DNA from: an uncultured Alphaproteobacteria bacterium
GTDB lineage: Bacteria; Pseudomonadota; Alphaproteobacteria; RF32; CAG-239
Direction of reading: 5' to 3'
DNA: 64,000 nt
Assembly (NCBI GenBank): GCA_934273635.1
Contig: CAKQSV010000001.1
Location: 4,162 to 68,161 of the forward strand
In this document: positions 6,001 through 9,000 of the stretch, piece by piece
How positions within the stretch are numbered: position 1 is the stretch's first letter
Layout: the number at the start of each line of letters is the position of its first letter
Position numbers: made by a program

Positions 6001-9000
6001 ATTGTTATGGAGCACAACCTCAACCGAAACAATGTGAATTATAGTGAAAAAAAGAGCTGTACTCATTACTACTCGGTCTTCTTTCACTTAAGCAGCAGAG
6101 CAGATGGTGCAACAGACGGTGCTCCTTTTAAGAAAGGTGCGGTCATTGCCAAAGTAGGCGGCACCAACTGTGTCTCTAACGGGAAAAAATCAAAATCGCT
6201 TACGTTTTATAATGACACATGTAAGCAACCCACAGGAGCGGGTTATGCCATACATATGCACTATGAAGTGCGTTTGTGTAAGTGGCAAGGAAAGGTTTTG
6301 AACCCGTTGTGTCCGACCAATCAAGCTCTGTGCAACGGTGCCGCCGGTGTTGATTATTCTGCCTCCTCCACTTTTACCAACTCAAATCCCAATGATTTGA
6401 CTATGGCCAACGTTCAGTTGGAGGATTGCTCTAAGTATAAGACAGTAAACACTCAGGCTGAGGCCCTTGCTAAGTGTGAAAAAATTCTTCCGGCCGGTTG
6501 GAGTATTTCCACCGATCCTAAAGTGAAGGCAAAAGTTGATGAATATAATGCTTGCGTTACCAAAGCAAAGTTGCCAAACATAACTCAATCTGTTGCAAAT
6601 AATAAGCAATATGAAGATTGCATGAGCCGTAATGAGGCCAAGAAAATGGCCGCAGGTGATTTTACCGGTCGGTATGGCGCGGTCTCCGGCGCAAGCACGG
6701 TTAAGGAAAACTTTAAGGAATATGAGAGCAACTATAAGTGCAATATCTCAGAAAACTATAACAGTGTTACGGGTTGTGTCTTTTGTCCGTTGTTCAAAAT
6801 TATATACAACTCGGCCTCGGTGATTGCCACAAAGTGCCACAAAACCTTTGCCAGCAGCCTGCAGACCTTGTTGGCTATCGGCTTGGCAATCTCCTTGGCG
6901 ATGATTGTAATGAAATATGTTTCTGACATGACGGTTAAAGACACCGGCATGATGCTGAACGAGATTTTCCGCAAAATATTTGTGGTTGTGCTGATTATGC
7001 TGTTGTTACAACTTGGTGTGGGCGAGTTTTTCAACATATTTGTCACCCCTGTACTCAACACCGGCTTTAAGTTGGCCTCTATGACCATGGGCACGTTTGA
7101 GTGCAAAACCAACTGGGGAATCGACGGCAGCGGTCTGCCCGCTGATATGGGTAACAATATGCTCTGCGCAATTTATGCTATTCAGGAACGTTTGCAACGG
7201 TTAATGGCATTGGGTTCAAACTCTTTGTGTATTGCCTTTTATGTTAAATCGTTCTATCACTACCCGATTTTCCCGCACTTTGGCTATTTGCTGACTGGTT
7301 TGTTCTTGTGGCTGATTGCGATTGTGTTTATGGTATGCTATCCGTTCCTGCTGATTGACTCGGTTTTACAATTCTGCGTGGCAATGTCGCTGTTCCCTGC
7401 GGCGTTAGCGGCAACGGCGTTCAAACTCACCAGCAAATATTTGAACATTTTTAAGGTTATCAATATCTTTATGAACGCGATGTTTGTCTTTATCTTCTTA
7501 ACGATTGTTCTGTTTATTCTATTGGAAGGAATCGACAAAGTTGCCAAAGAAATGATTGAAGCCGCTTATAAAGAGTCGGAGAGCGCGCAGTTCTTCAGTT
7601 TGGAAAAACTGGGTTGGTACTGCCAAAACTTTATAACACTGATATTCTTCCTGTTCTTGGGTAAGGCGGTGTTGGAAGATATTCCGAGCTTTGCCGAAGA
7701 CTTTGGTAAGTCTATTACACTTGGTCAAGGCGGCGGCAAGACCAATATGGGAATCGGTCGCAACTTGGGTGGTTTGGCTGCCGGCGCGGCAACCGGTGTG
7801 GCTACTCAGGTTGGAAAACCCGTTTTGAAAGCAGGCGCCCAAGGCATTGCCAGCGCGGCCAAAGCTACCGGAAAAATTGCAACAACAGCCGTTAAAACCG
7901 GACGTTATAATTATCTGGTTAAACGTACCATGAACAAGATGAACGCCGCGGAAGCCGCGGGCGGAGCCGCAGGTGCATTTGTAACCGGACGCACCTGGTA
8001 CGGCAAAAAAGTTTCTCGCCGCGTTATTCAGAATCCGGACGGTTCAATGGCTTTGGAGAGTAAGAGAACGGGTATATTCAATCGAAATAACGCCTACACC
8101 AGTGTTCAAAACGATATGATGTCGATTAAAACACGCAAGGGTAAAAACGGATTGACCAAAGAGTCTTACAGTATTAAAGACGCTTTTGCTAAGTCTCTGA
8201 TTAATAAAGACGGCACCAGAAACGATTTTGCGGTCAATGCCTTGATGAACAGCGCCGGTTTGACCGAAGAACAAAAAAACAAGGTTATTTTGAACCAAAT
8301 GCTCAAGCAACGTATGCCAGGCAGTGGCGGCGCCAACTTGGAAGGTGAGTTTAAGGACGAGAAAATCACCACGACCACCGATAAAAACGGCAATAAAGTT
8401 TTCGAGGTTCGTCGCACGGGCAAAAACGGAGAAATTAAGGTATTTCGTATGACCCGTGGCAAAACCCGTGATTTGATTGAATATGAAAAAATTCAATCAT
8501 CAGGGAACGGAACGGCTAAGTCGACCAAGTGGGCTTCGGACGGTGCTATTCAAAAGAAGGAAACCTGCATCTATGAGACCAACGACGACGGCACTCTTAA
8601 AACCAATGTCGAGGCCACCGCAATGATTAACGGCGCCAAAGAATCCAACGTTTCGGTGGATGCAAACGGTATTCTCAAAGACAAAAACGGCACGGTTCAA
8701 GGCAAAGTTATGGCTAATGGCAACATTGTCGATAAAGATGGTAAGGTTGTCGGAACCGCGCAAGTGCCGGATTTGGTTTTTGACAATCAAGGACAGGCTT
8801 TGGGCAAGATGAACGCCAAAGGAGAAGTGGTTGATAATAACGGTAATGTCAAGGCTGTAGTAACGGCGGACGGCACGATTGTTGACCTTAAATCTCAACA
8901 GGCTATGGGCATTGTTTCCGACGAGCAAAGAGCCGCTGTGTTTAATGCTCTGAAAGTCAAGGCCGGTTTGCGTAAAGTTGAGTTTTCTAACGCCAAAGCG

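Follow-up and report, generated by a model that had tools for sequence, protein, structure and literature searches.

Why does one short repeat occur in three different proteins of a single type IV secretion system (T4SS)? This question arises from a 64,000-nt stretch of DNA from an uncultured Alphaproteobacteria bacterium (RF32; CAG-239; contig CAKQSV010000001.1 of assembly GCA_934273635.1), referred to here as the window, in which a T4SS is encoded in two divergent gene blocks, one on the + strand and one on the - strand. A preliminary description of this sequence placed the repeat in the C-terminal tail of a VirB6-like protein (the fourth of four paralogs), in a VirB10 homolog, and throughout an accessory protein, here called REP, whose gene lies between virB9 and virB10. 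The three copies are homologous, the two long arrays belong to the beta-flower family, and a structural role in the periplasm is tentatively proposed for them.

A hidden Markov model (HMM) of three units (51 aa), built from VirB10 units only, was run on the window's 487 stop-to-stop segments of 50 aa or more. VirB10 itself was matched with 1491 bits, REP with 671 bits (E 4e-209), and the VirB6-like tail with 61.5 bits (E 1.2e-18); no fourth carrier was found with this model, the next-best of the 487 segments having E > 1. The tail can be aligned without gaps to VirB10 981-1065, with 43 of 85 residues identical (51%); the maximum for 200 shuffles of the tail was 21 of 85 (25%). The tail also keeps the order of unit types (A-A-B-A-A), including a special “DLVFD” unit. 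By itself it scores under the Pfam cut-offs (Bflower_2 30.6 bits, E 3.3e-7, against 38; DUF3659 17.5 against 24.8), which could be taken to mean that its similarity to the other two is compositional or fortuitous. The relationship is significant because a family-specific profile, derived from VirB10, was used rather than the Pfam models alone; and given this E-value, the identity relative to the shuffles, and the common 17-aa register and unit-type order, a chance match was rejected and has virtually no probability. Among orthologous tails, two have Bflower_2 on record (P0077, P0081) and two DUF3659 (P0076, P0084).

Sharing of the module by three proteins, at the places first proposed, is thus borne out, with exactly three carriers, and the possibility that the tail is unrelated to the others falls away. 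Two details of the preliminary description need adjustment. The repeat is present in the tail, but extends over 8656-8910 rather than 8655-8890; and the motif does recur in all three proteins, but with a strict length of 17 aa rather than 17–20. The gene identities hold, VirB10 by its TrbI domain (123 bits) and the 1197-aa protein as VirB6-like by paralogy and a structural match to TrwI/VirB6, and the length of 1473 aa given for REP agrees with a likely ATG at 28084.

Each repeat unit is a beta-hairpin: a short strand runs into a D-x-x-G turn, and a longer strand into a P/A-D-G turn. Nearly every unit has D-[KEM]-[ND]-G at the first of these turns, which fits the hairpin-tip motif [DNEQ]xxG of beta-flower proteins. 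The best Pfam matches of the repeats are Bflower_2 (PF21785; VirB10 546 bits, E 2.7e-167; REP 362 bits, E 3e-110; cut-off 38) and Bflower (PF21784; E 2e-66; REP 183 bits), ahead of DUF3659 (PF12396; VirB10 253 bits, E 1e-76; REP 174 bits, E 4e-52; cut-off 24.8). The VirB10 and REP arrays therefore belong to the beta-flower/DUF3659 family, which sits in Pfam clan CL0395 alongside the Tubby C-terminal domain. A resemblance to DUF3659 had been suggested in the preliminary description, correctly, though the Bflower families match better; and the family, although it has a name, is not one with a well-characterized and unrelated role. The Bflower families were made for the beta-flower fold, which Durairaj et al. 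(2023, Nature, PMC10584680) found in AlphaFold predictions: its short strands, 8, 10, or 12 of them, form a shallow barrel of 4-, 5-, or 6-fold symmetry, the petals are hairpins with a [DNEQ]xxG turn, and a C-terminal helix is often enclosed, as in the five-fold flowers. No function is known for it (PMC10584680). DUF3659 is likewise uncharacterized, its sole mention in the literature being an Aspergillus lipid-droplet protein, and no paper was found on beta-flower repeats in a T4SS, the ten top-ranked papers for VirB10 or Bflower not containing the latter name, nor on RF32 with type IV secretion.

An AlphaFold model of 18 VirB10 units (predicted local distance difference test, pLDDT, 84) consists entirely of beta-hairpins, with 3- and 5-residue strands in strict alternation. 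Confidence falls exactly at the junction of two nine-unit blocks, and this coincidence suggests that the modeled array is divided into nine-hairpin domains. The VirB10 periods of three and nine units (see below) match none of the 4-, 5-, or 6-fold beta-flower forms. Foldseek comparison of the repeat model to PDB gave no global fold assignment, only local likeness to Rhs cores (E 2e-17) and to choline-binding modules, with template modeling (TM) scores of no more than 0.17. A PDB sequence search with the 18 units returned nothing significant (best E 0.048), and a homolog search with one 153-aa VirB10 block gave only seven fragments, the word index coping poorly with a repetitive query.

The Rhs cores were the top Foldseek matches, and at first sight the arrays might be RHS/YD repeats, folding into a hollow cargo shell as in the Rhs and Tc toxins: scored over the whole protein, RHS_repeat (119 bits) and TIGR01643 (YD_repeat_2x, 117 bits) are both above their cut-offs, and one relative bears the name “YD repeat-containing protein” in its source. 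However, there is no significant single RHS stretch in VirB10, where Bflower_2 scores 546 bits to the 119 of RHS; the period is strictly 17 aa, as opposed to a 42-position model of two repeats (about 21 per repeat) for TIGR01643; and the TM scores to Rhs cores are 0.05–0.12, with a root-mean-square deviation above 20 Å. Neither Pfam nor NCBIfam detects a toxin or Rhs core domain, and what follows the array is TrbI instead. A cocoon of the Rhs kind, a closed shell with a C-terminal toxin, was rejected, and the RHS/YD interpretation as a whole is very improbable.

In VirB10 the order of parts is signal peptide, hairpin array, Gly/Ser-rich linker, and TrbI domain (coordinates are collected in Table 1). 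The array, between signal peptide and TrbI domain, takes up ~1780 aa, or ~105 hairpins, in two regions. In the regular region, one [LF][VA][FY]D-type unit and then two of DGxVVD type form a super-repeat of three units (51 aa), and there is a further period of nine units (153 aa), marked by DRYVYD; Tandem Repeats Finder reports periods of 51 and 153 nt, with 60–79% DNA matches. The degenerate region, N-terminal to it, is the part present in all relatives, in which the repeat span is about residues 40-1100.

Assignment to VirB10 is supported by the C-terminal TrbI domain, which in canonical systems is part of the outer-membrane core, and by a gene position between virB9 and virB11; the NCBIfam VirB10 and ComB10 domain models also match, at scores under their full-length cut-offs. 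The N-terminus is another matter. The cytoplasmic tail, inner-membrane anchor, and proline-rich linker of canonical VirB10 proteins were not found in the window protein, and by hydropathy it has no hydrophobic segment besides the N-terminal one. The N-terminus (23535-23640), like those of L004-L015 (12 of 75 full-length open reading frames, ORFs, from related loci), shows what looks like a signal peptide ending in A-x-A, after which comes a conserved mature sequence, QEITA[IV][DN]FNG. The signal peptide seems to be cleavable and of Sec type. On the strength of these two features, VirB10 seems to be without its canonical inner-membrane anchor, with anchor and proline-rich linker replaced by a signal peptide and ~105 hairpins, and a periplasmic location of the array is plausible.

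REP begins with a short N-terminal tail, followed by a transmembrane anchor, an Ig-like domain, and a hairpin array that runs to the C-terminus. Hydropathy indicates one strong transmembrane segment (ORF residues 24-52); the Ig-like domain is at about residues 93-175, and its match to ASH is weak. The array is regular to about residue 835, partly in groups of four hairpins with short linkers, and degenerate beyond. This degenerate C-terminal half (23666-25615) is related to the degenerate N-terminal half of VirB10 (20872-23559) over a ~650-aa alignment (E 2e-37). Since the degenerate halves are related beyond the bare repeat, the two proteins can be described, from their sequences, as a roughly mirror-image pair, REP regular then degenerate and VirB10 degenerate then regular. 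REP cannot be claimed as a collinear duplicate of the N-terminal half of VirB10; other alignment offsets are significant too. The REP array is plausibly periplasmic and anchored in the inner membrane. The genes are closely spaced: the virB9 stop codon shares bases with the ATG of REP (ATGA), and virB10 begins 22 nt past the stop codon of REP. REP and VirB10 are probably co-translated.

The third carrier, VirB6-like paralog 4, starts with a signal peptide; an M23-type peptidase-like domain comes next, then the VirB6 core with six hydrophobic segments, and finally a beta-rich C-terminal region that includes the module. Its place in the VirB6/TrbL family, as a polytopic membrane core, follows from paralogy, orthologs, and structure. 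It is paralogous to the three genes upstream of it, at 3-1163 (E 2e-22), 2520-5588 (E 2e-8), and 1187-2506 (E 0.002). There is no direct Pfam TrbL match to paralog 4 itself, the TrbL cut-off being passed among the four only by 1187-2506 (26.3 bits vs 25.9); PF04610 is found in its orthologs P0106 and P0107, and the top PDB matches of its AlphaFold model are TrwI/VirB6 of R388 (Foldseek probability 1.00, TM 0.61–0.63). The M23-type domain is in 5560-6700 (+), with HKGMDV ... HMHYEV; it is not reported by Pfam in the window protein at E <= 0.01, and orthologs have PF01551 and/or a lytic transglycosylase domain (SLT, PF01464). The arrangement resembles a fusion of a VirB1-like cell-wall hydrolase with a VirB6 channel subunit.

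The tail module itself consists of five units in exact 17-aa register: VDANGILKDKNGTVQGK / VMANGNIVDKDGKVVGT / AQVPDLVFDNQGQALGK / MNAKGEVVDNNGNVKAV / VTADGTIVDLKSQQAMG. AlphaFold predicts ten short strands here (pLDDT 80–87), with a helix, DEQRAAVFN, directly after them. Ten strands and a helix match the published five-fold flowers that enclose a C-terminal helix, and the tail most likely folds as a single flower of this kind. A periplasmic location is plausible for the tail as well, six hydrophobic segments (a hydropathy count only) following what would be a periplasmic hydrolase domain.

Not all relatives have the tail module. Orthologs down to ~50% identity carry a five-hairpin insert at the same place, 44–52% identical to that of the window, and one (P0089) an expanded version. 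It is cleanly absent, with two conserved segments flanking the site, from P0086, P0088, P0091, and P0093, and from the more distant P0094, P0097, P0107, and P0108. In one locus without the insert (L084), gene order is unchanged and the VirB10, of 1529 aa, carries Bflower repeats. Because distant orthologs without the insert occur with array-bearing VirB10s, the tail flower is, by this comparison, a later acquisition in one sub-clade. The common unit order and shared “DLVFD” unit point to the VirB10 array as the probable source from which it was copied.

The VirB10/REP pair is much more constant. A genome scan, with one genome per species, yielded 285 confirmed loci, of which the best 80 were examined. 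All of the latter are from uncultured gut or rumen Alphaproteobacteria, with GC contents of 34–54% and record titles that include “Azospirillum sp.”, “Candidatus Scatocola”, and “Proteobacteria bacterium CAG:495”. In each of these 80 loci that covers the region, and in L001-L003, a REP of 1070–1580 aa lies immediately before a VirB10 filled with repeats. Homologs of the VirB10 C-terminal region (69 matches) are nearly all metagenomic; about half have Bflower on record, but the most distant (29–32% identity, one of them named as a Rickettsiales metagenome-assembled genome, MAG) do not.

What varies is the size of the VirB10 array. The 75 full-length ORFs are between 1400 and 2372 aa, with a median of 1517, and their lengths correlate with how large the perfectly regular array is (r = 0.85). 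Chains in exact register reach a median of seven units at their longest, the window having 53, L004 55, and L013 44. With the regular chain short in most relatives, and length differences tracking it, the degenerate hairpin region is read here as ancestral and the regular array as a lineage-specific expansion. Some of this expansion appears to be recent: blocks 1168 and 1474 of the window are 94% alike, against 78–82% to the nearest relative, L004, pointing to an internal 18-unit duplication.

Changes in length of this sort, in bacteria from animal guts, and the precedent of CagY and DotG (discussed below) could mean that the array is a surface-exposed, recombining variable region, tuning secretion or evading the immunity of the gut host. 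Several observations count against this. The DNA copies are only 60–79% alike and the longest exact direct repeat in the array is 35 bp, so that frequent recombination would have little to work on; DNA repeats of the CagY type, long, near-identical, and open to frequent in-frame recombination, are lacking, and the array is not a hotspot of that kind. It is largely collinear with that of L004, including both flanks, and its units are consensus-like rather than diversified. Its location, N-terminal to an outer-membrane domain and behind a signal peptide, predicts the periplasm rather than the surface. A variable-region function is accordingly quite improbable, and the divergence of the DNA copies, with protein units remaining similar, would rather indicate selection on the fold.

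The arrays also have a practical consequence. Three scaffolded short-read assemblies have a 100-N gap inside the VirB10 array (L001 9899-9998, L002 9874-9973, L003 9827-9926). Short-read assemblies break inside the array, which accounts for public VirB10 entries of this clade having no more than 849 aa and being mostly fragments; users of public protein sets should be warned that these proteins are split or truncated by gene callers.

If the repeats in the three proteins have a common function, it could be structural. The reading preferred here, at somewhat less than even confidence, is that the hairpin arrays build an enlarged collar or cage in the periplasm. Nearly all of the predicted periplasmic portion of VirB10 and of REP consists of hairpins, which would occupy the space from an inner-membrane platform (REP, VirB6) to the VirB10 ring of the outer membrane. 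REP and VirB10 would be held together by contacts between hairpins, as would the VirB6 tail in those relatives that have the module; the tail flower would be an extra docking point gained by one sub-clade. The collar is suggested by analogy: the repeat-rich middle regions of DotG and CagY have been proposed as a periplasmic “collar” (10.1101/2023.03.22.533729), and the length of DotG varies with its repeat number. The preliminary description had suggested that the repeats either self-associate into a common periplasmic or extracellular scaffold or bind a common ligand; a shared compartment for the three copies is plausible given the signal peptide, anchor, and hydropathy profiles. Its interpretation stands as to gene identities, repeat family, and a possible shared compartment, but not if taken to mean that three-way sharing is universal in the clade.

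Several points weigh against such a collar. VirB10 is 14-meric in canonical systems; if the same is true here, the arrays, at ~105 hairpins in each copy, would add up to megadaltons of protein in the periplasm, and if they are extended they would far exceed its width. The C-terminus of Agrobacterium VirB6 is described as cytoplasmic, and a periplasmic tail in the present protein depends on a count of six transmembrane segments predicted from hydropathy alone. Finally, the tail module appears dispensable in many relatives; it is absent where the VirB10 array persists, so that three-way sharing is not essential to the machine as far as these comparisons go.

The arrays might instead be ligand-binding modules, fixing the machine in the cell wall by way of peptidoglycan, another envelope glycan, or a membrane lipid; the repeat would then be shared because each of the three proteins needs the same anchor point. 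There are certainly cell-wall domains in the locus, namely SPOR on VirB9 and M23 and/or SLT on the VirB6-like orthologs, and the family belongs to the Tubby clan. Foldseek finds local likeness to the choline-binding modules of LytB, CbpF, and LytC (E 5e-8 to 1e-5). Choline-binding domains are solenoids with three hairpins per turn, which the three-hairpin super-repeat of VirB10 recalls. But the regular VirB10 units are poor in aromatic residues (25 in 884 aa) and acidic (isoelectric point about 5), in which the known carbohydrate- and choline-binding hairpin repeats differ, no Pfam cell-wall-binding family was matched, and the TM scores are at most 0.17. Ligand binding, the main rival to the collar, is on the whole unlikely, though it keeps some weight.

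A more specific form of the collar model can also be imagined, in which the envelope bridge is “split”: VirB10 would have lost its own anchor, REP would supply one in trans, and the two hairpin arrays would pair, making a multi-megadalton periplasmic cage together with the VirB6 tail flower. This must be considered improbable. If it were true, the beta-flower hairpin would be a homotypic “Velcro” for envelope machines, and this would be the first function for an orphan fold.

The rest of the locus is set out in Table 1. On the - strand, the order of transcription is VirB4, four ORFs, two VirB8, VirB9, REP, VirB10, and the VirB11-type ATPase. None of the four ORFs between virB8 and virB4 has a Pfam match, and the 1387-aa protein has no NCBIfam match either; a large protein is found at the equivalent position in L001. 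Between the VirB6 and VirB11 blocks, a protein with two HTH_3 (XRE-type) domains is encoded at 10300-11271 (+), and is kept there in L001, L002, and L084; it may be a regulator of the locus. Type IVb-pilus-like genes adjoin the T4SS at 43279-50454 (-), encoding T2SSF, a T2SSE ATPase, and PAP_PilO.

Table 1. Features of the T4SS locus, in order of position in the window.
Feature	Position	Strand	Size or extent	Basis
Four tandem VirB6-like genes	3-1163 (cut by window edge), 1187-2506, 2520-5588, 5560-9153	+		Paralogy
VirB6-like paralog 4	5560..9153, likely start 5608	+	1197 aa	Paralogy, Foldseek, ortholog domains
Five-hairpin module, predicted beta-flower	8656..8910	+	ORF residues 1033-1117; short helix after, 1121-1129	
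VirB11-type ATPase	15704-16672	-		
VirB10 homolog	16684..23640 (ATG 23640; ORF 16684-23661)	-	2318 aa	TrbI and Bflower_2 Pfam matches
TrbI/VirB10 C-terminal domain	17011..17580	-	ORF residues 2028-2217	PF03743, 123 bits vs cut-off 35, E 1.7e-35, profile 2-187/188
VirB10 regular array	18223..20874	-	ORF residues 930-1813; 52 units of exactly 17 aa, no indel	
VirB10 degenerate hairpin region	20875..23559	-	ORF residues 35-929	HMM domains throughout
REP	23663..28084 (likely ATG 28084; ORF 23663-28105)	-	1473 aa	Pfam Bflower_2 362, Bflower 183, DUF3659 174 bits
REP hairpin array	23666..27400	-	ORF residues about 236-1480; ~73 hairpins	
VirB9/CagX with C-terminal SPOR (peptidoglycan-binding) domain	28081-29679	-		SPOR E 2.4e-4, 21.8 bits vs cut-off 21
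Two VirB8 paralogs	29692-31505	-		
Four ORFs in the virB8-virB4 interval	31515-39843	-	1387, 476, 292, 684 aa	
VirB4	39923-42358	-		

The account of the beta-flower fold given in 2023 drew only on predicted structures; here it would constitute most of two conserved T4SS components and part of a third. With this system present in at least 285 species-level genomes, from gut and rumen Alphaproteobacteria, the fold can now be studied within a defined machine. For VirB10, this is a third independent route to enlargement, beside those of CagY and DotG. Enlarged VirB10 proteins were already known; what is new is expansion by a different repeat, and one common to other subunits. Only here, of the three cases, is the VirB10 repeat also reported from other subunits, an observation that points to contacts between repeats as a principle of assembly.

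Comparison with known systems shows partial likenesses to several. The hairpin solenoids of choline-binding proteins and clostridial toxins (CW_binding_1) are similar in having tandem hairpins of ~20 aa, three-unit periodicity, and local Foldseek likeness, but there is no Pfam match, the aromatic ligand-binding residues are absent here, and TM is at most 0.11. As to gene content, tandem VirB6-like paralogs with long extensions and a duplicated VirB8 define the rvh T4SS of the Rickettsiales; both are found here, and a Rickettsiales MAG is among the distant VirB10 matches. Those distant matches (29–32% identity) lack the Bflower domain, however, and the present host is free-living or gut-associated and Rhodospirillales-like.

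Described beta-flower proteins (PMC10584680) likewise have as petals short antiparallel hairpins that turn at [DNEQ]xxG, and their profiles match VirB10 and REP strongly; the five hairpins and helix of the VirB6 tail are as in described five-fold flowers. They differ in being small, often single, and sometimes lipoproteins, while here 70–105 hairpins are arranged head to tail, and within core components of a secretion system.

For VirB10 there are parallels in two other systems. DotG/IcmE of the Legionella Dot/Icm system (PMC6761968) also has a TrbI C-terminus after a variable number of short repeats, its size varies across species (1000 to >1500 aa) with repeat number (PMC6761968), and its repeats are those proposed to form a periplasmic collar (10.1101/2023.03.22.533729); they are, however, 10-aa or pentapeptide-like, far fewer, and not reported in other components of the system. 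CagY, the VirB10 ortholog of the Helicobacter pylori Cag system (PMC5954226), reaches ~2000 aa through long internal repeats N-terminal to a TrbI-type domain, the number of which is altered by in-frame events. Its repeat type is unrelated in sequence, its DNA repeats readily undergo recombination in the course of infection, and a surface association has been reported for the region, whereas the copies here are diverged and predicted to be periplasmic, and the repeat is found in two other proteins of the machine as well.

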